The notes beneath the pieces are model-generated. The model was not told the origin of the DNA and did no database searches. It saw only the letters and a program-made list of their open reading frames with translations. The translations under genes and the position numbers were made by a program. This document shows positions 1-46,400 of a stretch of DNA of 60,000 nucleotides, piece by piece (position 1 is the first letter of the stretch; every line of letters begins with the position of its first letter). This DNA comes from Laetmonice hystrix (taxonomy: Eukaryota). Location: positions 12,216,001 to 12,276,000 of the forward strand of contig OZ249436.1 in the NCBI GenBank assembly GCA_965235115.1, in the 5' to 3' direction.

Positions 1-32
1 AAACCCCAAAGGCATATCATGACTTCTCTTTT
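1..32 (+). ncRNA. 3' end of a Y RNA-like Pol III gene (copy 0), truncated by the window start
   Basis: CCAAAGG-catatca-TGACTTCTC-TTTT at 6-32 matches the 3' half (upper-stem strand, TGACYTC stem strand, T4 terminator) of the seven complete copies downstream. Confidence 0.6.
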
Positions 33-1338
33 CATCAAGCAAAAGGCTTTATTGCAATTTGAACGTTGATCAATACATCCCCCCCCCCCCTCCCACCACC
101 ATGTCCCTTCCTTTCTTATCCTCACGTCATTAAAATGTTGCTTACCTAATTAATAAAATATCACTTTCCTAAAACATTTTCTCACTGTCTTTTACCAATC
201 GAGGATAAGCCCTGATTTGTTGTGACTGACGATCAGAATATTTGGCTGCCGGAACCTTGGGAAATGATCCACTGAGCCACACCAGGCAGGGTAATCCATG
301 TTGTACTCAATAACCCCGTACAGCATACAGTATGGAGAGGTGGGGCCCAAACATACAAGATCAATTGGACTCGCTCCTCGTCCAAACGTACCTCAAGTCG
401 CCATCCGCTATCTCTTCTTCATAACTTGACATCCATTTGATATAAAGAGACAGTAATAATAACTAAGAATCCGAATGTTTTAAATCTGTCTTTCTCCCTT
501 TCTTTCTTTCCTTTCCTCCTTTATTCGCTTCCTTCTTTTTTTATTGCCCCTCACCAATCTGTTTGAAGGTATGAGATAAAGCCCCTACACTGTACAGTGA
601 ATATACCTCTGACGAGAGGAGTACAGTGTACAGAGGCCTCGATAGTTCCCAAAGTTCCCTGTAGGTGTCCCAGACTCCAACCTTTGAGCAACACGAGGCG
701 GTTGCAGCCTCTCTCTACCTGCCTTCAGTTAGCATAGACCTTACAGAGACATGACAAATTCCTTGTATACATTTTAATGTCGGTGGCTGGAGGTATACAT
801 GAGATTTATCGCCGCCCAACAAGTCCGGCTCGTTGGTATCCCGCCCGCCCGCCCGCCTCGCCACCCAGCCACTGGCCATCCTAAGGTGGACATGATTCTG
901 ATAACTCCGGTGCACTCCTACCATCTGGCTTGGAGTTCATGTTTACAATCGTGTCAACTCCAGCTGTCAGTACCAGATACACCCCCATTCCTTCCAGCTG
1001 TTCAACCATAGAGTATACTCAATGGTTCAACCGACTTCCCCCTTGCACCATCCGTGTCCTTCCCCACACTACATCGTTTTGTGCACTTCACTGTGATGAT
1101 ACAATTCGCGGTTGCCATGGCAACCCCCGAAGCCCCCTCTCTCTCGGTTTCCACCATGTTGATCGTCTTCAGAAATACGCCAACAAGACAGACAAAATCG
1201 GCACAAAGGCGCACTTTGTCTTGGGATCCGTAAACCGAGCATAATTAAAATGTTCACCATTGTCTAAGAGTCTGTCCTTGCTGAAGTACATGCCAAGAAA
1301 CCGTACCTGAGCAGCGCGGATCTTGACCAAACGGTCGG

Positions 1339-1398
1339 GTTATGTTAATGAGACTGCCAGGGCAGAGTGAGCCGGAGATGGTGAGGTGGGTTTATAAG
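1339..1398 (+). promoter_or_regulatory. Type-3 Pol III-like promoter (PSE-like element plus TATA) of copy 1; equivalents precede all seven complete copies
   Basis: A degenerate TAATNAGA(C)TGCCAG-like motif ends 59-63 nt upstream, and a TATA box starts 28-32 nt upstream, of each RNA start. Confidence 0.65.
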
Positions 1399-1420
1399 TA
1401 GGGGCACCTTCTCTCAGATC

Positions 1421-1531
1421 GGGAGGTCCGGAACCATTGGGCCCCCATGCTTCTGCATGAGATTACTTCTCTAGTATCCCATAGCTGTGTCTGGTCATTG
1501 TGCCCCCAATGGTGACCTTGACTTCTCTTTT
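1421..1531 (+). ncRNA. Y RNA-like Pol III small RNA, copy 1 (~111 nt)
   Basis: TATAA at 1393. 5' GGGAGGTCCGGAACCATTGG pairs with 3' CCAATGG-tgacct-TGACTTCTC, followed by TTTT. Upstream element TAATGAGACTGCCAG ends at 1360. Confidence 0.85.
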
Positions 1532-2344
1532 ACTATCATACTGACAACCTAAACGGTTTCACGCCGTAGAGATTTGGTTTTAACCCCTTGATTTATTAAA
1601 GGTTCATATACCTGACCAACGTATGCTTTATTTCAGATGAAACCAGAGATGTCGGTACATTACATGAAAATTAGACTTACTGTCTGTCAGATCATCTGCA
1701 AAATGTTGATACTATCTGCCATATATGTCTATCATTGTTTCACCTATAAAATTGCATATCTTATTTATAGGTCTAGAAAATGACAGGTAAGGACAGAATA
1801 TCCCTGTCCTTATCTCTAAGTTTTCAATTGTGTCAGAACTAAATTGTATGTTAATAAAAAAAAAATCAATAATCCAATCAGTCAGAAAGCCAGTAGGACG
1901 TCCACTGGCTGGGTGTTAGATTCCTGCCACTGTCGGTGACCGAGACCACCACCCAGCCTCTGCTTCCTGCCGTCTGATGCTGCCAAACCCCGGCTGTATG
2001 CCGGTCGATCTGCCGGTACCACTCCCTGGTTCAGTCCTCGCCATCTCTCAGCCACTTTTTCCACCTGAGACGCTCAGTCAGCCATTGCTTCACTCATAGA
2101 ACACTGAACATATCCACGCACCTTCCATATAGCCACATAATAACCCCTAACGTCGCTGATAGCAAGTTTGTAAAAATGTGAATTTCTAATGGCAGCGTTC
2201 TGAGCGAGCCAACCATACGATTTCCTCAAGGCGTACACCTGAATCAAGCTAACCAAAGCCCGTGATATGATAATGAGATGGCACTGATGTTGGAGGGAGA
2301 CTAAAACAGTCGGTATATAAGAGTGGAAGGGCCACTACTCCACT

Positions 2345-2445
2345 GAGGAAGTCCGGAACCATTGGCGACTTATGCATGCTATTAATTTCCCAGTAAAACA
2401 TAGACATAAACATTGTCCGAATGGTGTAACATGACTTCCTCTTTT
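2345..2445 (+). ncRNA. Y RNA-like Pol III small RNA, copy 2 (~101 nt)
   Basis: TATATAA at 2314. GAGGAAGTC pairs perfectly with GACTTCCTC (compensatory changes relative to other copies). CCGGAACCATTGG...CGAATGG upper helix; TTTT terminator. Confidence 0.85.
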
Positions 2446-2940
2446 GGAAATTGTGTTCACAACCCCAAATATACTTGGGCTGACCGTACAGATTATCAAA
2501 TCTGTTAATGTTTTTCAAAAGGTCATTTTGTATTGATTGTGCTGGCCAATGGTTGTAAAAATGGCATCTATCGCCCTATGATTCATAGTGTAAAGGTTAT
2601 GCACATGCAGCACATACATTAATTATTTTATCCTTTTTTTAACCTTTATCTTAACCTTTTACAGTACAGCAATACATATAATGCTAATTTCTTTTTTTTT
2701 TTGGTGGGGGGGGGGGGGGGTGTTGTAAACAGTTCCTGGAGAAATGTTTATTGGTGTTGGACGTTGTTTACCCATCAACTAGAGACCAAACATTCGGTTG
2801 GCAGTTGTAGAAACGAGATGTCATACCTGGTGCACGCACATAACGTTTTTATCATTCAAGGTTGCATCCTCGGGCTGATAAAGTTAACTTTTGCCACGTC
2901 TCACAATGACATACACTGATATATAATGCTATAATAAAGC

Positions 2941-3150
2941 CAGTGCTGCCAGCTGGATTTGACCAAAAAAGTATAGAATTTTTCAAGAGAAAAGTATCCA
3001 AATTGTCGAGACAAAGTATTAAAAAAGTACATATATGTATTATTTAAAAAGTATTTTTTTAAAGTATTTGCACCTGAAAACGTATGAAAAAAGTAGTTTT
3101 GCTCGTAAAAAGGTATAATACTTTATAAAAGGTATAAAGTGGCAGCACTG
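2941..3150. mobile_element. MITE with 6-bp target-site duplication
   Basis: TIR CAGTGCTGCCA / TGGCAGCACTG, flanked by TAAAGC on both sides; internal AAAAGTA repeats. Confidence 0.7.
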
Positions 3151-3889
3151 TAAAGCACTTTGAGCTGTATATTTCATCTTTGAATCAACACTTCTCTAAA
3201 GTTTGCTGTATAACCCTTTTGACCATCACAGGCTGGAGCGTCCATCTCCTACAGGCCTGTTCGTTATTGAACGAAATCCTCTAACTGCCTTCTTCACATC
3301 TTGGTGGCCAGTGTTCCCTCGAGTTTATAGCACTAGTTCAAAATTCTAATGAAGCAGTGATGAAAGAGGGAGTTAGAAAACAGATGGAAAAACATACAGT
3401 AGCCTTGGAATAACAGATCACAGATGTAAAACCCGGTATAGAGAAAAACTGATCAGACAACCAAACCTGACCATCTCCCTATTGGAAGCAATGGATAATA
3501 TGAAAGTATCGTCAATCTGAGTCACCCCCCACCCCCGACCCCACCCACACCCACACCCTCCCCATTCTTTCAGCTGACTCACTGATTCAACACTAACAAC
3601 TCCAACGGCCTCATCAGGAACTGCTCGGACCCACTGGCATAGCAACTAGGTCTATTCTAATATTTTCTCCAAAATGAACCTAAATAGAAAACCATCTCTT
3701 TCAACACTCTCACCAAAAGTCGCATAAAAGTTCCTCCTTCTGATCCATTATTTACCAAGTGTTTTCCATTAATTAAAGCCTGAGAAAACGTCAATGATAA
3801 CTGTGAATAATGATAATCATTGGGCAGCGTGTGTGAGTGACGTGACGGTGGTGGGGGGTATATAATACAGGAGATGGCAGAATGTGTCA

Positions 3890-4106
3890 GAGAGGTCCGG
3901 AACCATTGGCCCCGGCAGGCTACTCTATGCAAGGCTCTCCGATAAGGCCCCCTGATACTGACTGATGATACTGCCTCTGGTGCTAAACAAAATGTCAAAA
4001 ACTACAACTGACTTGAAGTACACGAACGAAAAGACACTCCCTGAATGTAGCGGCAAATAGGGCACTAATACCGTGGGGGAAAATGGAACCTCAGACCTCT
4101 CTTTTT
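3890..4106 (+). ncRNA. Y RNA-like Pol III small RNA, copy 3 (~217 nt)
   Basis: TATATAA at 3859. GAGAGGTC/GACCTCTC stem; CCGGAACCATTGG...AAATGG; T5 terminator; no internal T4. Confidence 0.8.
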
Positions 4107-5223
4107 CTCTATTTGATAGCGTTCTCTATCTGATAGTGTTCTCTATCTGACAGCTTGCGTTGCTGTGACGGAAAGTGAAAAAATCAAATTAATGCGCAAC
4201 GAATCTTTGAGGTTTCCAGCAATGGATTTCTTCTTCGCAGCATATATTTACTTATACTTAAGTTTACTCTGCTAATTCGCACTAGTTAAAGCTTCACAAC
4301 AAAAAGAATGGCATACACCAGACCCTCTTCTTCCAATCGCCAGGAGGTTTTCAATTTGAGCAAATACACGACCGGTGTGGCGCAACAATGAATATCATAT
4401 TTCGACATGTTTGTTTAACCCCGAACACACATTTTCTCCCGAAATGAAACACTGAGAGCTGCACAACTTTCAGTCTGGCGACACGCGGGTATCAATAGAT
4501 TTCCGCTTAGCAGGAGCAAGTGGCGCCACCTCGCGTGAAATTCTTGTTCTAATATTTTCAAACCTTTTTCATTACGTTTGAAGAAAGTTTTTCTATTGGT
4601 TTTATTCATCTATTTGTTCAAATATACAATATAGGGGGGGGGGCTACTTATTAATCAACTTACCTACTTATTCAGCTACTTATTCATTTTAATTATACTC
4701 ATGCATTCAACCCTCCTGCCCCATCCATGACCGTATAAACTCCAAGTGCTCTTACAAAACTTGCGTCCACTGAATGGCCTTTGGACGTTATCCGTGCGTT
4801 ACCCGTTTCTACCACTAGGTGTCAGTGCCATGAAGCGACATCTAGTGTTATCCTCAGGTACCCGGAATTCCCCGATGTGTAATCGACGGGTATGATTCAC
4901 AATTCTCCGGGAAGCCCGGAATTCCATGCCGATGCTGACTCAACCCTCAGACCATCGATTCACAGCAATGTCTTTATCAGAAGACCTATACCGACAAAGA
5001 ATTGCTGCGTTTATTGGAAAATCGGCATAGTATGTAAATATAAGCCACACTAAAATATGTTCAAAACTTACACTGTCCCGATGCTCTTAAAAATTCAATA
5101 ACAGTTTTGATGTAGACTTCACAATATGTTACAAATGATTTCCAGAATTCTAATTACTATCCAGTGGGTCGGGTGTACCATGGCGGTGAGATACTATAAA
5201 GCATGAGTGAGGCACTTCTAACT

Positions 5224-5417
5224 GGAAGGTCCGTGCCCATGTTCTGGACGGTTGTGCATACCACATTGAAAGTGAAAGTATGAAGAATCACGTTGTAGAG
5301 ATGTTCTGTCCGTACGTCTGTCTGTTGTACCCTGTATAAGTTGCGGATTGAGTTTCAACTTGCCCACAGTTTCGTCTGACAACTGACGCCAGCATGGGGA
5401 ACTTGACTTTCCTTTTT
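5224..5417 (+). ncRNA. Y RNA-like Pol III small RNA, copy 4 (~194 nt, divergent)
   Basis: TATAAA at 5195. GGAAGGTC-CG...CTTGACTTTCC-TTTTT. Upper helix covaries to CCCATG/CATGGG. Confidence 0.8.
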
Positions 5418-6097
5418 ATGATAAAATATCATCCGTCTTTACACTCACAGGAGTATAATAAAGTCACTTAATTGAGCAATGTGATGCAATGATAAGAGTG
5501 AATCCAGGATGCTGGAATGGAGGGGGTTCTTCTTCTTCATCGTCTTTTTTTTAAATGTTCTTTTGTTGCTTGTACGTTTTCTTCTTTTTAACAGCGTTCA
5601 CGTTGGATTCGCTGCGCAACCACCAGAGCCCCCTGGCGTGCGTGGAGGAAGGTGAGTTTGACCCGATTGGCGGCGGTCCAGGGTGCACTGACTGGGAGCT
5701 GAGGTGGGAGGCAGTCCGAGGCCAGACAAGCTCAGTCAGTCCACCAGACGGGCGGTGGTGGGTGCATCCTCCCTGCTCTCACTACCCGCTACACCCGCTA
5801 TACTCCTGGCTCCCACCCCCACCCCACCCCTATGCCAGGCCTCACACCTGAATTTCCCCTCAGCTTAATCATTTTCTCATTTTCTAGCAAGCCAAGTCGT
5901 TTGATTCTAAAATAAGCTAAATCAAAATCTGCCAAAAAGCATTATCCTTGAATTTGCAAAAGACTGCCGAGATACGCATAGCTATAGTTGCAGATATCCT
6001 ACCCAAAGGGTTCTGGATTTCACATTAGATGCCAGCGGATGGTAAGTGCCAGGCTCCGTGGCAGGTATATAAGTGGGTTGGAGAGACTTAGTAAGTG

Positions 6098-6276
6098 GGG
6101 AGGTCCGGAGCCATTGGCCGTGAAAGCAACAGCCCCCAGGGTAGGGTGGTGTATGTCGAATGATGAACGCTTCCCGAATGTGGTGCTAGAGAACCCAACA
6201 CTGAAGCTAAGCTTCCCAACTAGAAAAATGATTCTAAAATATGTGAAACTTCAATGGCAAGCTTGACCTCCCTTTT
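6098..6276 (+). ncRNA. Y RNA-like Pol III small RNA, copy 5 (~179 nt)
   Basis: TATATAA at 6066. GGGAGGTCCGGAGCCATTGG...TCAATGGC-aagc-TTGACCTCCC-TTTT. Confidence 0.85.
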
Positions 6277-6703
6277 GAATTGCCTTTTGATCAATCGATG
6301 TATTTATCAGACTTCCTGATAACTTTTAATTTTCTTTAATATATGACTATTTCTTTACCTAAATTTTACCCCCCCCCCCCCCCCAACTCAGCCTGTTTTA
6401 TTCCCTGCATTTTTCTATACTATAAGTACCTGGTTGATTATTGCATGTGCATGAAAACAGTTTGACTTTGGGGAAGAAAATGTTGGAGAAGCCTAACTCT
6501 TCGAAGTCAAATTCCAGCTATGATTCTCAAAGCCAAAGATAATGATTCCTAACAATTTATTCACCTGAGCCAAAACTGTTAATGAAAAGTCTACACAAAT
6601 TCTCAAACAGGGCGTCGGGTGGGGTCAAAAGTTACCCTCCACTCAGTCCTGATGCAGGCTGATCCCTCGCCCTCCAACAGTTTGCTAATCAGACTGGGCA
6701 CCT

Positions 6704-6860
6704 CAGGGCCGTAACGGGGGCGGGTCTGTACCCCCCACCCCCACCCCCGGTGCCAAAGAAAGAAATTCATTGGTCATACGGTGCTCGCTTCGCTTGCACT
6801 TTACACAATTCCGCCCCCCCCCCCCCCCCCCCCCCCAATAAATCTCTGGCTATAGCCCTG
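6704..6860. mobile_element. Non-autonomous DNA transposon remnant (hAT-like ends)
   Basis: CAGGGCCGTA...TATAGCCCTG imperfect terminal inverted repeats with poly-C subterminal tracts. Confidence 0.45.
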
Positions 6861-7849
6861 CAACTTGCCATTCTACCGGACATTCCTAACGCTTGAACAG
6901 ATTTCTTTTTTATTATACGTCTCGATTTTTTTTGTACACAAACGTACTACGACATATCCTCGCACGTTTACTTAGGTCCACGTGCGTTGCAACGACAGCT
7001 TCACTGTCGTATCGATCTGTCGTCCCGGCCTCTGACGTCACACCGCCTGGCGGGAGTTATGTTAATGAGATGACTCATCCAATGGGAGCACGCGGCCCCC
7101 GATCCCCACCCGTTACCATGGCGTGAGGCAATGTTTACCAACAGCCATTACCGCACGTGTGCCATGTGAACGCTATCATAGACCAGCCTGACAAAATCAC
7201 TCAATTTAGCTGCTTTGTTTTTTCTCGGCTCTCACTACAATATTCTACCCCTGAATGAAATATGCGAGTCCGGCTAAATGATAATGATCAACAAAATAAT
7301 TGTTGGTTACTTTTCTTCCAATATGGGATTTTTAAAGAGAAAACAAGATGGTAACATCATGACTGGTTTCCGTAAAAATCCTTATCTGTCCTTGAGTTTT
7401 GGGAGTAGAAACAAGTTGGCCAGCTCCAGGACTGTGACATCCCATGGATCGTCTCATTAACATAGATTTACCGACATCTCCGGGAAACCCCATCACTTAC
7501 TGACTCATGACTGCAACTATTCTCTCCTTCTGCAATGTCTGTCCTTTCTGACTCAGCTAACAGTCCGACAAAGGATGACTAAAATGGCAGTAGACCTTCT
7601 CTTCAAACCACAATATATGGGAATTCCCCCTAAAACACAAGACATTTGAATTTGTCTTCCAAAACTACGTTAATCAAACACTGCAAAACTTTCTGTGCAA
7701 CCTATCAATATAAATATTACCGCTGAGGACGCGATATAACGGGAGAACATCTTGTACCAATGGTCGGGTATGATGATGTGCTGCCAGTGAACCAAAGGTA
7801 CTCGCATCCTTGGTTGGCATATAAGGCGATCCGTGGTACCACACAACAA

Positions 7850-8169
7850 GGGAGGTCTGGAACCATTGGCCCTAGGGTTGGAACGGGAACACCACTAGCT
7901 ACCTATATGTTATCATTGTCTTCTATGCACAAACGTTACATTCCACTGGGTAAATCATGCCTGAGAGAGCTGTGCCTGCCCCTTGAATGTTTCCCTGAAA
8001 CCCCCTCTGTGCCCCCCCTCCCCGTGCCTGACCAGTATGAATGTCTACACCCACGTCCGACCAACCAAACACCTCACCATCAACTTCCACAGTGCCTTCC
8101 AAAGCACCGAATGGTCTTCCTACTGAATCAGTGATGGACAAGGGTCAATGGCCCTATGACCTCCCTTTT
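7850..8169 (+). ncRNA. Y RNA-like Pol III small RNA, copy 6 (~320 nt, long loop)
   Basis: CATATAA at 7818. GGGAGGTC/GACCTCCC stem; CCATTGGCCCT pairs with AGGGTCAATGG; TTTT terminator; no internal T4 over 320 nt. Confidence 0.8.
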
Positions 8170-9345
8170 GCTCTCAGTAAAGCGAGTTTGAGAGAAGACA
8201 ATGCAACACAACAATCTCTTACTTCTTAGCTTTTTCTCCCTGGCGATTCAACTATTGTCCAATTTTCAAACTTTAATTTTTCCAATTTGAAAGAACCTGA
8301 AGTAGGATGTTGTAGGATGTCTACATCACTGAGATTTGATTACTGATACGGGACTCGTATCATCTGTGTTTCCAGACTTTGCGTCTTGCTAAACTTTCTT
8401 AAAGGCACTCCAAATACCAGAACCTGATGAAGGCTCCTGGAATCTTGAGCGTGCCAACCCAGTGATTTAAGCCTATATCTGAGTATGTCCCACGTAACAG
8501 TCGGCAGGAACTGTTCCCGATTCAATGGGCCAAAGACAGCTACATATGCAGTTACGGGGTACCTTATAGCAAATCCAACACCTCTTGGACTATAAACCGA
8601 AGAGTGGTTATAATATCGGTTACTGGATGATATGCTGACTATTACCGCATTGGAAACACCTCCAACGAGTCACAGAAGGTAGTTTCCTATTGATAGAAGT
8701 CCTCCAAAATGAGCCGCACCTCTGCCCACTAGTCTATGCAGGACGACACATAGCGCCGGGTTGACTGCTGACTGCCGCAACCTGGCCATTCTCAAGCACC
8801 TGTTACATGGCAACTATCTGACACTACTCCTCCACTTTCCATAACAGACCTGGCCATATAACTTTATAAGGTAATAAAGTAATAATTTCACGCAATAAAT
8901 AATGTGGACATTACGCTTGAACTGAATCACTAAGGCTTTTTTTTTTATCTCTAATGCAGTACCGTATATAGCATGTTATCAGTGGAAGTTTATTTTCAAC
9001 AGTGACCCATAAAATATTACTGTCCACAAAGTCGGCAATTCCTCCCTCACTATGAGCCCTACCAAATCCAATTAATTCTCACACTGACACAGCCAGATGT
9101 CAAAACCGTCATGATCTCTGGCTGGATATTTTCACCTATTCTACCCCTTATATACTGATATTTCTGTTCTATGATTTAATGAAAATGTCAAGAAAAGTCT
9201 GGGCTTTTGATGGATGAAAAATGACGCCCAAACACCTGGCCAGTGTCCAGTTCATGTTGTATTAAGTGTTTCATCTATGCACACCAGCTGGGAGTTCAGC
9301 CTGGAGACAGTGACTATAAAAGGCAGTTCTCTCATACACAACAGT

Positions 9346-9440
9346 GGGAGGTCCGGAGCCATTGGATAACCTGATCCCTGTTAACAAAAACTTCACCTCT
9401 ATTCCAATCAATTACCCAATGGAGACTTTGACTTCCTTTT
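9346..9440 (+). ncRNA. Y RNA-like Pol III small RNA, copy 7 (~95 nt)
   Basis: TATAAAA at 9315. GGGAGGTCCGGAGCCATTGG...CCAATGG-agact-TTGACTTCC-TTTT. Confidence 0.85.
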
Positions 9441-10408
9441 GTGACTTCAATCTTTGAATATTGCTTTGCCATGAAAAAGCATGACTTTGCACATAGATAC
9501 TATTCCAAATGAATTTTAGCATACACGGTATCAGAAAGAGAGGAATAATGTATCATTTATGAATTTTCAAAAAATGATAAAGAGTTACATGTATATCTTT
9601 TAGGGAAAAACTTTGAGGAGTGAGGTGGGTTGTGGGTTTTTGTCAATACATGTAATATTTTTTAGCAAAGGCAGAAATAAAGTACACCGTACATGTACTT
9701 TATAATGAACCCACTCATCAAAACTTTTAACAAGAATTATCTTTCTCCTCATTGGTACGATGGTCTCAGGAAAAAAAATTAAGATTTTCCGATTGTTACA
9801 TAAAAGCTAGAAGAGCCCTTCTATGTCGCTTCTGATAAACTCAGTTAGAATGAACAGCCAACAACATCTACAACCTTTACACTAGTGTTGTGGCTCATTG
9901 CACCTATTGCCCTGGTACAGTGTACATGTATAGGAATGCGTCGCAGACGATATTAATACCTGCTCAAATCACCAGGTGGCAGCAGCGTACCACGCTGTTT
10001 CTCACAATCTTTGTGGTCAAATTATAAACAATTTGCAGTTCAATACCTCTGACTTTGGAGATTCCGCCTTATGGTTTCTACAGCTACCTTTATCTATACA
10101 CGGTATACCAGTGTCACTAAATACCAGACAGAGGGTTAGAACTTTTACAAGAAGCTGTATTTGTGCTATGATGCTATGAATGTGTTTGTTGAAGGTCCCA
10201 CTGATGCTATATATCTAGAACATAGAAGCCCGATTATCTCTGACCCTCACAAATCACCTGGTGCACAAAAACATGTTACGTCCAATTAAAACCCGATTCA
10301 TATTACAAAGCAAAATCAGTACACACAAGGGCTACAATTCAATAAAAACTCTTAACAGTTTCTAACTCTTCAGTATTCTCTGGTACTTGTGTAATGTGGT
10401 GTACTTAC

Positions 10409-41024: not shown

Positions 41025-41608
41025 AACCACGTCCATAGAAAGTATTCAGAAATGAGTCATTCTTATCTCAACGTTCTCAGGTCTAGGTGTAAGTACGGTT
41101 ATTGTAACCCAGGGCAGCATATTAACATGTCCTCTCTCTTCTTCTACCGTCCATATTTAAACAAAATTGTCTATAAAGAAAGGCGCCGTTGGTATATCGT
41201 AATGTACTTTTTATATACAAGGATCCTTGGATTGTGAGAAGGAATAGTCCGACCCGCGGGTTCTTCTTCTCCCTCTGGATACTCGGGGCTCTGTGGGAAT
41301 GTTCCTACCGATCCACCGTAACCTAACGTCGGCTTCAGCCCTCACATCTCCTCCAGACAATGGTGATCTGTATTTGACGCAGGCTGGGGCCACATCCTCA
41401 GTTGAGCTTGGTATATTGACCAGTCCCTCGCCAGAAGCAACCTGCACAACCTATAATAGCCTACTGATTGACAGACTCACGGCCCTGACGTGTGTAGACC
41501 ACGCTGTCCAGGTCTTTGTATTTACACCTTGCTGAGCTCGCAGTATTCCCATTCACAAGGTCGTTGGAAACATGCTGCATCTTTGGCCTTCAGAACCCAC
41601 AAGCCACC

Positions 41609-43493
41609 TTATCTCCGTCCACTGTGCAGGAGGCTCGTCTCTCCCATGAGGCTGGGTTCGTAGAGGCGTTGACAGCCAGGCTGACTCTCCCACCTTCCAG
41701 CGGGACTACAGACAGCGGCACACCTCCGACCAGAGCTCGAACACACGTAGAAGACCAGGGAGAAGACATGCGACCCTGTGACACTGTGGATGGTGGCTCC
41801 AGGAAGTGCTGGTGGCTCCCCACACCGGATTTCTGAAATAATGAGGGGAGTGTGATCACCCATCTCCTGCAACAACCTTCAGCCCTATATAGGCAACCTA
41901 GGCATAGATCTATACCCTTTTTGGCTCCCCCTCTATAGTGTGATCGTTTAGACATCATTGACCAGAATATTATCTTCACACAGTGAACAAATTTTATCTC
42001 GATAAAGACGTCACCGGCAAAGATATGCAGGCTATATACGTATAGGAGAGTTTGGATTACCCCCCCCCCCCTCCCCCAGCCTCCCCACCCCTTTACCTGG
42101 AAGACTGGGTACCAACTCACCTTGCCGGCAGAGTGTACCAAAGTAACCAATCGGACATTGACACAGGCGACTCCCGCCCAGGGTACCTATCACCGGATGT
42201 CCACCGTTGGAACAGGAGGGACGGAACGCCGCCATTGTCTTTGTTACGGGGTCATCTTCTGAGACTTCAGAACCTGCTGCTAAGGGGAAAACACTGTCCT
42301 TTTCTATCATATGATTCGCTCGGGATGATAAGGACGGAGCATTCGTGTCTGTAGACCCGTATGTGGTCGACGACGCCTCAGTGATAGTAACCTCAGGCTC
42401 TTGTGATAACGCTTGTAATGATAACGTTTGAGTAGTTATCTCGTTTCTAGGTAATTTGCTCTCGCCAGTTGTAGATTGGCCATGGTCTGTGGTCGCGGTG
42501 GTGGTGGACCCAGTGGTGACTGTTTCAGGATCCTGTGTAGTGGTGCCTTTGTCCTCGGTCGACCCGGAAGACTGAGTAATACCTTCCTCCGTTGACCCAT
42601 AGGATTGGTAGTATCCAGGTGTGGTGTCGGTCTTCAGTTCCTTCACTGAAACAAACGATATACCTGTACACGATCTGCAGTTTGATAATTTAATGGACGC
42701 CAAAATGGCATATCTTTAATATAAGTCAGGGGGCTAGGCCCTGCCTACAGCATGCTTAGTTCAATTTGACATAACGTGGATTTTCGTTGATTAATTTGTA
42801 GGCCTAGAAAAGAACAACATTGGCACTTACCTACACATTTTATTTTAATTTGAACCGGGCGGAAAAAATAGCCACTGAAGACCCACCATGCATTAGTGAT
42901 CAGTTCAGGTCGGAAGGCATAATCGCTCACGAATAAACTTATGTGACTTGTGTTCAAACTCGATTTAATCATCCACGTCCCCCCGTATAACAAATATCCG
43001 ACGCCATCTTCCTTCTTATAAACTGGACGTAAGTATGACGTGAACTGCTGCAGTCGGTACGTCCCCGCGAACTTGGACTGTGCCCTGGAGGCGTCGGAAA
43101 TCCCGCTGATTTCGATTGTGCCCGAGGTGCATACTCCAAAGTTTTCATCCACGCAGGTTGTTTTAAGTTCACGATGTTCTTCCCAGCCGCCGGAGGCTGT
43201 CTTTACGAACCACACTTGCTCAGCCGACAAGGAGGGTTGGCGTTGTTTGGACCGGAGACAGACTGTGACATCCTGTAGATCATTGCTGATGTTCGGACTG
43301 ACCACCCACGGGCAGAGCACCTTACCGGCGGCCCCTCGGGGACGATACATGTAGAAGGCACCCGATTCGTGCCTGTAGACCTCCCGGGCCACGTGCCTGA
43401 GCCCAGGTTGGAGGATGTACACACCCGAACTGGCCAGCAGCTCAGGGTAAGATTCGTTCACGCTACCCAGGTAGAATCGTCCCGTGTCACACT
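41609..43493 (-). CDS. Uncharacterised extracellular-type protein: two tandem aromatic-rich modules, Ser/Thr-rich stalk, EGF-like domain, sushi/CCP domain (5' exon(s) not resolved)
   Basis: Phase-1 exons 42831-43493, 42121-42663 (or alternative acceptor 42645) and 41609-41832. EGF motif CSNGG...CQCPIGYFGTLC; sushi motif CGEPP...VFYVC...C...GRW...PGC; stop TAA at 41609-41611. Confidence 0.75.
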
Positions 43494-46400
43494 CTGATAA
43501 AGGCAAAAAAATGGATGTCAGCAATGAGGATGTAATACTGTACCCCTCCCCCGCCCTTGCCGCAAGAATGGTACACTGGCCACCATTCTTGCTTGCCGTA
43601 GGCTACAAACAAAATACATGTAGGCCTTTACATTGTACAGGCCAATGCATGTTCGTTCCTCATCTGAACGTCATAGATTCATAATGATGTTTGGTGGAGC
43701 CTATTCAGGACTACAGATCGTAGCTACATTTATGCATGTAGATGCATTAATATGAATGCATATTCGGTGCAAAAGATCTATGTAAGCTTATACGTGGAAA
43801 TGTATTAGCTAATATGTGCGCGAAACACCCCCACCCCCACCCCGAAATGCATGTTCATGCCTGGATATAGGCCGATACATAGGCCCCTAGAGCTATTTCA
43901 CGCATGCGTGCCCGGCATAGATCTACATAAACTTCTATGATATATAGACCTAAACACATAGGTTGGTCTACATCACGCATGCGGAAACTTCGGTTTTGGT
44001 CAAATGATATAACTTTTCAATAATATGGAAGTACAAAGTATCATATACTAACCCCCAGATGTCGTACGGCATAACCACAATACCGCTCCAATCAGCGCCA
44101 CTGAGAGCATCTCTATGTGTAGTATTCCGCCTGTGACAAGTCTTACATCTGACCGACAAAACGTTAAAGAAATGTTTGACGGTTTCCTTGTCCAACCTTA
44201 TGTCAGGTGAGAGAAGCCGTCCACACGTGCACGTTGAGTGGTCCTAGAAGGGTGAAGAACTGATGAGTGTCCTGCTTCCGTCTTCAGATATAACGGGAAG
44301 CTTGGTGGTCCCTGTGTAGTCACGTCCATTGACACACAGCATGGGTCACCTATCCACCCACGCCAACTACGGTCTGGGGTCACGGGGAAGGCGGAGCGCG
44401 CCAAAGTTGTAGTATATAGCTGTAGTAGTATTGGCTGAGGTTTTCCAAATTGAACAAAAAAACGTTTTCGCGGGACACCAACGCAAGAAGCCTCGTGTGT
44501 TTGACTCACGCTTCGCGTCAAGGCTCAGTATCTGTTTTATTTGGTCATGATTTGTTCAGGAGCAACATTTGTTTTTTAAGATATGGAAAAGTCTCGGGCC
44601 GCGTATAAGTCATACATGCATATGTACATGCGGGTGGTGAGAAAGTGTGGGTAGTAGGCTAATTACAAAGACTGCATTTCAGTGGTTTTTCATTTACATG
44701 TGAACATTGTAGTTCATTTAGGCCCATATAGTAGAGGAGTCTAGCATTTGGCAGTCCGCCTTTATAACCTTGATAATGAGGCTTGGTGAAAGGGCCAGGA
44801 CGTTCTGGACATAATATAGTCCAGCTTTGCCCTAAACATATTCAGATATCATATATCCACCCAGATTATTTCCTGCCGCTCCCCAAGCAGAGCACACCGT
44901 CGCCTCTATTAGGATGTGTGCGACGTGTCATTGTACATGTATAATATTAGCACATGGAAGTGGACTAAAACAGTGGCTATAGGCCTAGTTTTGGTATTGA
45001 TGAATGTTCGGTGAAATAAGAGACCCATAAGGATGAGGTGGAATGAGGTGTAGGCCTTTGCTTGAGAGGAAAAACGGAAGTGCCTGTGGGATAGGAATGT
45101 ATGACGTCATTAGGCCTAATTGATTCGGGGTGCGGGGGTTATGCATTCGGAACACCGAGCCCTTTACGATGTAGAGAGACACAACTACAGCGAAGCGACC
45201 GGAAGTTGGGCCGAGGTTTTCCGAATGGGGGTTATGGTGAAGCTTTGTCAGGGTGCGCTACTTTCAGAGGTTTCATCATAACCAAGATTATGTTGATAAG
45301 ATATGCCGATGTGCCTATAGGACGCTGTGGCCAATAGATTGCTGAGGGCGATGGCAAATTGAAAAAGTGAGGTCCATTCTATTTGCTCGTTTTTATTTGT
45401 CATCCATTCCTTTTCCTTAAAGTATATATTTGTTATGCGTTATCTTTCATGTGTAAAAACGAACGTCAACAGTAATGTCTGTTCCTTTTGAATTTCATGA
45501 ATGATCAGACCGCGGTCAATTTGGCATGACAGCGTGAGACCAAGTTCAGCCTGAGATTTCTACACCAAGTACATAACGTTACCGAGGTACAAACCGCGAC
45601 AAGGGACGCCACTTGCTCCGACCCATCATGATGATGTTTTCCTAAACTGACCTCGACCTCCGCGTGGAACGCCGCAAACCACGTCCTGTGTCGAGGAACT
45701 TCAAGAACCACCAGGTGTCCCCGTCCCCGCCGTACGGGGCTGTGTACCGCGGCAAACCGTCCCCGCCGTACGGGGCTGTAGGTCCTATAGGCCTACCACG
45801 GGAAACCTGGTCATATATCGTCTGCCAACTATGCTCTTATCTGGCCAGACTGAACACGTGTACAGACTGAGTGACTGAGTCAGTCGGTAGGCCTACACAT
45901 GGGCGGATTCAGGGATTTTCTCCCTGTAGGCCACTGCTATAAGCTATATACCCGATTAAAAGGGCCCATCCGTTTAGAGCCCTCACCCCACCCCACCCCT
46001 ACGTGTGTTGGTCCCTTTCCGTTTCCCCGTCGTTTCCGGCCACTCAAATATTCAATCATTGCAATTAGGCCCCAAGTCCAAATAATCGCGCCCAGAATGT
46101 TTTCGGCCTACTCTCCCATATTATGATGTTCGTATTACGGTCCATTTCGAACCCTTTGTTATTTCTTGTGTCCCCGTTTTGAGCACACAAGCATGTCGAT
46201 GCCTCACGTATAGGTCTGCCTTGAGAACAATCGGAACACCGAGCCCTTTACGATGTCGCCTTGAGAAGGTCTTTTACTATAGACTGTGTCCATGCACTTT
46301 CAATCGTCGGTGACACACTCGGGGGTCGTCATAACAACTCCACACATAGTTGGCTGACCATGACTGTACCTTGCATGGCCTGGCCAACACTCCACGTTTC

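Follow-up and report, generated by a model that had tools for sequence, protein, structure and literature searches.

A 60,000-nt stretch of the Laetmonice hystrix genome (assembly GCA_965235115.1, contig OZ249436.1, positions 12,216,001 to 12,276,000; G000:C1:12216001-12276000 in our numbering, hereafter the window) carries an array of eight Y RNA-like units, all on the plus strand. In the best-supported reading of their sequences, these units probably constitute a divergent and expanded Y RNA family that RNA polymerase III (Pol III) transcribes and that binds Ro60. Seven of the eight lie complete within window positions 1421-9440, and the assembly as a whole comprises 627 Mb in 35 contigs. 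The units share a common gene anatomy, their two RNA arms covary as paired strands, their promoters resemble those of U6 small nuclear RNA (snRNA) genes in the same genome, their bodies lack runs of four T residues (T4), and the genome encodes Ro60. From these features we infer that the units are transcribed, bind La and Ro60, and are functional.

The array units are named U0-U7, names that are distinct from those of the U6 and U2 snRNA genes. An earlier reading of the window, made from the letters alone (hereafter the original prediction), had placed seven unit starts at 1421, 2345, 3890, 5224, 6098, 7850 and 9346; all seven are real and on the plus strand, and the start-to-start distances measure 874-1752 bp, in keeping with the predicted spacing of about 0.9-1.8 kb. 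The truncated unit that it had noted at 1-32 has its missing part immediately before the window, these 32 nt being the 3' arm and T4 terminator of U0, whose 5' end lies at G000:C1:12215927 and whose promoter and 5' part directly precede the window. R1, a covariance model built from four short units, recognises one half of U0 in L010:9927-10000 and the other in window 1-32, and a scan of 20 kb upstream revealed no additional unit. The 5' motif AGGTCCGGARCCATTGG, with up to three mismatches allowed, occurs six times in the 60-kb window versus 0.12 expected, each time at a unit start, and the corresponding motif of U4 (start 5224) is more divergent (AGGTCCGTGCCCATG). For the 3' motif, 24 matches are found versus 7.25 expected, eight of them at unit 3' ends. 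Because R1 cannot bridge long inserts, leaving U3, U4 and U6 missed or fragmentary even with filters off, all nine units of the family were aligned by MAFFT on their exact ends (alignment A4).

The ninth unit is a full-length copy on the minus strand of another contig (C19:25165-25262), detected by R1 with 38.5 bits (E ~1e-7). Genome-wide, a tight version of the 5' motif gives 9 matches, 7 in the array (control, 17); a looser version gives 46 versus 18 in the control, of which 7 belong to the family and most others to a GGGGGGTCCGGNCCCC-type repeat; and a gapped pattern combining the 5' and 3' motifs gives 11 versus 24, 3 being family members. R1 finds no match at 29 other candidate loci from the looser search (ten further loci, mostly of the GGGGGGTCCGGNCCCC type, were outside this test), nor a further one within 30 kb around the C19 copy. 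Searched against the genome as DNA, window positions 1-9600 showed repetition in a spacer element (2722-3156) and in a portion of the U5 loop, and the unit ends were not repeated. The pattern searches and R1 thus recover nothing beyond the array and the C19 copy, which puts the family at about nine members, all but one in a single array; it is not a dispersed repeat. In a metagenome scan, the 5' motif retrieved at least 120 stretches, and R1, run on 80 of these loci, gave one weak match (15.3 bits, E 0.093) that we take as chance. Similarity between units is confined to promoter boxes, both RNA arms and homopolymer runs, the spacers and loops being otherwise unrelated, as had been predicted of the DNA between units. 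The units are therefore old duplicates that keep exactly the parts expected to function.

A TATAA element lies at -28 to -31 in seven of seven window units, agreeing with the predicted TATA near -30, and is likewise present in U0 and the C19 copy. About 40 bp upstream of it, near -70, stands a box resembling a proximal sequence element (PSE). The promoters, all on the plus strand, span 1343-1398 in U1 (box TGTTAATGAGACTGCCAG, TATAA at -28), 2266-2323 in U2 (box TATGATAATGAGATGGCAC, TATAA at -29), 3811-3868 in U3 (-29), 5145-5202 in U4 (divergent box, -29), 6018-6075 in U5 (-30), 7770-7827 in U6 (-30) and 9265-9322 in U7 (-31); the PSE-like boxes are weak in U0, U4, U7 and the C19 copy. A PSE-like box and a TATA element at these positions form the layout of a type-3 Pol III promoter. 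The 90 nt upstream of the nine units align nearly gap-free with the promoters of four U6 snRNA genes from this genome: the TAATGAGA..CA box and GGTATATAA share their columns and lie equally far from +1. The single 7SK gene shows by eye a matching layout of CTGATGGAAACACCAC then GCTATATAAG. At the corresponding place in two U2 snRNA upstream regions inspected, no TATAA is present. The original prediction names type-3 Pol III promoters for vertebrate Y RNAs, and the alignment and the resemblance to 7SK favour a promoter of this U6/7SK type here; the upstream box is presumably a PSE. U6 snRNA genes give 21 genome matches, in tandem arrays with a period of ~1.5-1.7 kb (C2:53.92 Mb, C12:19.15 Mb and C21:10.84-10.86 Mb).

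Two further observations concern promoters and snRNA genes. U2 snRNA genes are arrayed at C4:36.53-36.61 Mb with a period of ~7.4 kb. Within the array, a 21-nt inverted pair at 7058-7078/7444-7464 (86% complementary) carries the TATGTTAATGAGA box found in the promoters of units U1 and U2; its arms face each other across 365 bp, with no TATA 40 bp downstream of either. We rejected the pair as a high-copy element (47 genome matches versus 26 in the control), and neither the DNA between its arms nor that beside ten other genome matches of the motif yielded an Rfam family.

Each unit ends, as predicted, in a run of four or five T residues. The genes, again all on the plus strand, extend over 1421-1531 (U1, 107 nt plus T4), 2345-2445 (U2, 97 nt plus T4, with a 9-bp terminal stem GAGGAAGUC/GACUUCCUC), 3890-4106 (U3, 212 nt plus T5), 5224-5417 (U4, 189 nt plus T5, which has diverged most), 6098-6276 (U5, 175 nt plus T4), 7850-8169 (U6, 316 nt plus T4) and 9346-9440 (U7, 91 nt plus T4). 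Together, the nine gene bodies (1383 nt) contain no run of four or more T residues versus ten such runs of A. In 5000 composition-matched shuffles of the bodies, the mean is 3.51 T4+ runs and none occurs in 2.06%; the spacers hold 7.3 T4+ runs per kb, giving a Poisson P of 1.8e-4 for seven window bodies without T4. This strand-specific avoidance of T4 spans even the 316-nt U6 body, which argues that the long units would be read through as single Pol III transcripts. At the end of U3, a 17-nt unit (TTCTCTATYTGAYAGYG) is repeated three times in tandem at 4105-4155, the first copy beginning within the T-run terminator.

In alignment A4, the arms of the nine units form an 8-bp terminal stem followed by a bulged base, which is the predicted C in eight units and U in the ninth (U6, start 7850). 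Past the bulge, a G-U pair occurs in 8/9 units and a second pair (G-U or G-C) in 5/9; on the 3' strand, 3-6 unpaired nt then precede an upper helix of 7-8 bp, CCAUUGG/CCAAUGG or a variant, which in U6 is lengthened to 10 bp. The second helix of the original prediction, CCATTGG/CCAATGG, holds as written in five of the nine units and is replaced by variants in the others, in U4 with compensatory changes. Standard pairs fill 92.0% of the 162 cells (18 pairs); shuffles give 86.2%, with none of 500 as high as the real alignment, and slid registers 35-58%. Changes on both sides are seen in 7 of the 18 pairs, matched by one of 500 shuffles, and across the structure statistics the observed values are reached in 0-2 of 500. 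The terminal-stem covariation quoted in the original prediction is correct and exceeds both the shuffle and the slid-register controls. In U4, compensatory changes retain both helices: pair 3 is A-U, and the upper helix has G-C and U-A. Minimum free energy folds pair the first 8 nt (nt 2-8 in U7) to the 3' end in all nine units and form the upper helix in eight. The array described in the original prediction is thus confirmed and lies far outside chance, and we conclude that these are almost certainly functional structured-RNA genes under U6/7SK-type promoters.

The likeness to Y RNA emerges from the Rfam library of 4227 families, against which four of the short units (U1, U2, U7 and the C19 copy) were scanned singly. 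Y_RNA (RF00019) is the sole full-length match: it aligns end to end (1-96 of 96) with U1 (25.3 bits, E 0.0016), for which it is the only Rfam match, and with U7 (22.1 bits, E 0.0095), whose one other match, ZEB2_AS1_2, is partial, weak and on the opposite strand (11.2 bits, E 1.2). Other Rfam families yield short-stretch matches only; whether the 4227 include a model for stem-bulge RNAs (sbRNAs) or CeY was not checked. The terminal stem, bulge and upper stem of U1 and U7 are positioned as in the Y_RNA model, and the letters in common are 5'-terminal GG..GGUCCG.A and 3'-terminal UUGACU...UUUU. GGUCCG is exact in seven of the nine units, with AGUCCG in U2 and GGUCUG in U6. Xenopus Ro60 is reported to contact GGUCCGA, chiefly through the 5' strand (PMC4201824), and the Ro60 site is described as a helix that has a single bulged cytidine and, on the opposite strand, a further bulge (PMC4726728).

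A candidate partner for such RNAs is encoded in the same genome, a point that the original prediction had marked for checking. An intact, intronless Ro60 open reading frame of 546 aa lies on contig C18 (L050:856-2496, minus strand) and aligns full-length to solved Ro60 structures (E 4e-162); its closest named relatives, at 54-57% identity, come from a chiton, a brachiopod, abalones, an annelid and a nemertean, which suggests a lophotrochozoan animal. Ro60 itself occurs throughout the animals. Other TROVE-domain matches are a multi-exon locus at C5:9746073-9748570 and a 209-aa open frame at C8:3367526-3368038, which could be TEP1-like or a Ro60 fragment.

Several results weigh against the Y RNA assignment. 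At gathering scores Rfam gives no match in the window, so that standard annotation misses the units, as had been foreseen. Relative to the RF00019 gathering threshold of 38 bits, the scores of U1 and U7 fall short by 13-16 bits, and these two units are paralogues, hence non-independent; U2 and the C19 copy have no Y_RNA match at E up to 10, so Y_RNA matched two of the four short units scanned singly, both below threshold (U0 and the four long units were outside this test). Neither a permissive 10-kb scan nor a genome-wide scan returned a Y_RNA match, the latter being a weak test that scored just 51 of 81,721 first-look candidates. Because GGTCCGGAACC is also similar to the tRNA-type B box consensus, a conserved 5' strand does not by itself point specifically to Ro60. 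In the motif itself, the seventh base is G in eight units and U in one, never A, and U6 bulges a U. In the upper stem, UUG-CAA stands in place of (A/G)UG-CA(C/U), the UG-CA core being kept in five of nine units, and the full GUG-CAC upper-stem motif of Y RNAs (PMC4726728) is absent. As to length, five of the nine units measure 91-107 nt, and the remaining four, U3-U6, reach 175-316 nt, beyond the 80-130 nt of characterised Y RNAs (PMC4201824). The proposed comparison with the Y RNA model thus came out in part, full-length for U1 and U7, below 38 bits, and blank for U2 and the C19 copy. For the idea of a divergent invertebrate Y RNA family as a whole, the promoter, the T4 lack, the stem-bulge covariation, the GGUCCG/UUGAC module and Ro60 speak in favour, and the Rfam threshold, the lengths and the missing GUG-CAC against.

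The main rival takes up these objections: the units would encode lineage-specific Pol III stem-loop RNAs that serve another ribonucleoprotein without binding Ro60, the likeness to the Y stem being convergent or too remote for function. Besides the sub-threshold matches to two of the four tested units, the four members longer than known Y RNAs and the absence of the full upper-stem motif shared by Y RNAs and sbRNAs, this rival can point to the sbRNA loop motif UUAUC (PMC4450293), which occurs in one of nine units and not at the loop start. We nevertheless consider it unlikely, if the most credible of the alternatives, as GGUCCG...UUGAC with its bulged pyrimidine, held at a constant distance from both ends, is the best-conserved part of the units, Y_RNA alone among the 4227 Rfam families gives an end-to-end alignment, and the genome has an intact Ro60 while its scan, a weak test, shows no other Y RNA candidate. 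A decaying pseudogene array, made of old tandem-duplication relics that are no longer expressed, would account for the weak PSE-like boxes in U0, U4, U7 and the C19 copy, for long units as genes disrupted by insertions, and for the U5-like fragments on contig C20 that lack a 3' arm. This explanation is improbable given that promoter boxes, both arms and terminators are kept where spacers and loops have diverged beyond recognition, that compensatory double changes occur even in the most divergent unit, U4, and that T4 runs are missing even from the 316-nt body, A4 runs being common.

Lower still in probability, and in our view scarcely credible, is the suggestion that the units are ends of transposons or short interspersed elements, or else vault RNA genes. 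Repeated units with conserved ends around a variable middle are compatible with either, and vault RNAs are likewise clustered Pol III genes with paired ends. The units as dispersed high-copy transposon ends, an outcome that the original prediction had named as fatal to its reading, do not fit the nine copies found in 627 Mb, eight in one array, nor the DNA search of window 1-9600, which gave no other copies of the unit ends. Vault is absent from the matches at E up to 10 in every scan (the 10-kb scan and those of the four singly scanned units), with no formal scan made for the internal A and B boxes of vault RNAs, and no tRNA-like gene turned up. Y RNAs that bind Ro60 are thus the identity to which the weighed evidence points as probable.

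If the units are Ro60-binding Y RNAs, Pol III would start at the G run and stop at the first T4-5, directed by the PSE-like box near -70 and TATAA near -30. The ends of the RNA would pair into the 8-bp stem with its bulged C, one or two G-U pairs, the asymmetric bulge of the 3' strand and the upper helix of 7-8 bp, and between these arms would lie a variable loop domain, ~40 to 270 nt long. La would then bind the 3' oligo-U, the bulged stem would dock through its GGUCCG strand on the outer face of the Ro60 ring, as happens in vertebrates, and the variable loops would give every paralogue its own partners. Taken further, the family might act as a modular set of Ro60 tethers, in which a constant Ro60/La stem is combined with nine terminator-free loop domains (40-270 nt), each recruiting its own partner or substrate; we regard this idea as tentative and rather doubtful. 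Were it true, some members would be the longest Y RNAs known, and the family would be an animal counterpart to the bacterial Y RNAs, which tether Ro60 to an effector through their second domain.

Among the loops, that of U5 has partial relatives elsewhere. About 100 nt of it (6125-6222) are 86-87% identical to two tandem copies on the minus strand of contig C20 (C20:12261751-12262300, L205), one of which has a degenerate 5' arm (GGGAGGGCTGGAGC), the 3' arm being absent from both. The U5 loop may be a separately conserved module. The shared part contains AUGAUGA...CUGA, like box C and box D; we do not claim a box C/D small nucleolar RNA (snoRNA), as no terminal stem is apparent by eye and Rfam gave no match there, a permissive scan included, to snoRNAs or otherwise.

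Elsewhere in the window, the spacer between U2 and U3 contains a dispersed repeat at 2722-3156, probably a small transposon, with dozens of genome matches at 70-93% identity in the pieces 2728-2905, 2941-3030 and 3061-3156. The array spacers hold unusually many long C or G homopolymers of ~10-25 nt (77-95, 2703-2720, 4633-4642, 6368-6386 and 6813-6835). None of eight window open reading frames with 150 aa or more has a Pfam match, and three adjoining or overlapping open frames on the minus strand at 41590-43602 (285, 227 and 198 aa) likewise lack one.

Descriptions of Y RNAs are restricted to a few groups, which reviews give as vertebrates, nematodes, two insects, amphioxus and some bacteria (PMC4726728, 2015; PMC11825425, 2025), and a 2009 survey of one lophotrochozoan genome did not find Y RNAs (PMC2770079). 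Our literature search, limited to top-ranked, non-subscription articles, found no paper on lophotrochozoan Y RNAs. Compared with vertebrate Y RNAs, the units agree in having individual external Pol III-type promoters, a T-run terminator, clustered genes and paired ends; in 5' GGUCCG, the bulged C and 3' UUGACU at equal distances from the RNA ends; and in the extra 3'-strand bulge, the upper helix, the variable loop and a genome that encodes Ro60. They differ in number, with nine members here versus 0-4 genes per vertebrate species (PMC11825425), and in length, vertebrate Y RNAs measuring 84-112 nt whereas four members here measure 175-316 nt. In vertebrates, moreover, the seventh base is A and the upper stem GUG-CAC, whereas the units have G (or U) and UUG-CAA; all eight array genes lie on the same strand, and their Rfam scores are 22-25 bits versus 38.

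The sbRNAs and CeY RNAs of nematodes likewise form an expanded family, with at least 19 members in C. elegans (PMC4450293), and share with the units a putative Pol III promoter for each gene, a C that bulges from the lower stem, UG-CA as the core of the upper stem, and a poly(U) tail. However, nematode sbRNAs carry (A/G)UG-CA(C/U) in the upper stem and begin the loop with UUAUC (PMC4450293), neither of which the units reproduce: UUAUC appears once, inside the U6 loop, and never at a loop start, the flanks of UG-CA differ, and the loops are much longer. The U6 snRNA and 7SK genes of the same genome have a PSE-like box and TATAA spaced alike from +1, and U6 snRNA genes also form tandem arrays; however, the U6 snRNA copies are near-identical in Rfam score, whereas the units have just promoter boxes and RNA arms in common, and the RNAs themselves are unrelated. 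Bacterial Y RNAs (YrlA/Yrn1), which combine a Ro60-binding stem with a large second domain of separate function, may offer an analogy to the long loop domains of the units, although their motif is GNCGAAN0-1G (PMC4201824), with no sequence likeness to the units and no tRNA-like domain detected in these. If the units are Y RNAs, they would extend this class to a poorly covered animal clade, with unusually long, terminator-free loop domains, and would provide a seed for a covariance model reaching protostome Y RNAs missed by Rfam. Set beside vertebrate Y RNAs, they would single out GGUCCG, the bulged C and UUGAC as the ancient parts of the Ro60 site, and would show loop growth to ~270 nt, which bears on how Y RNAs gain partner-specific functions.

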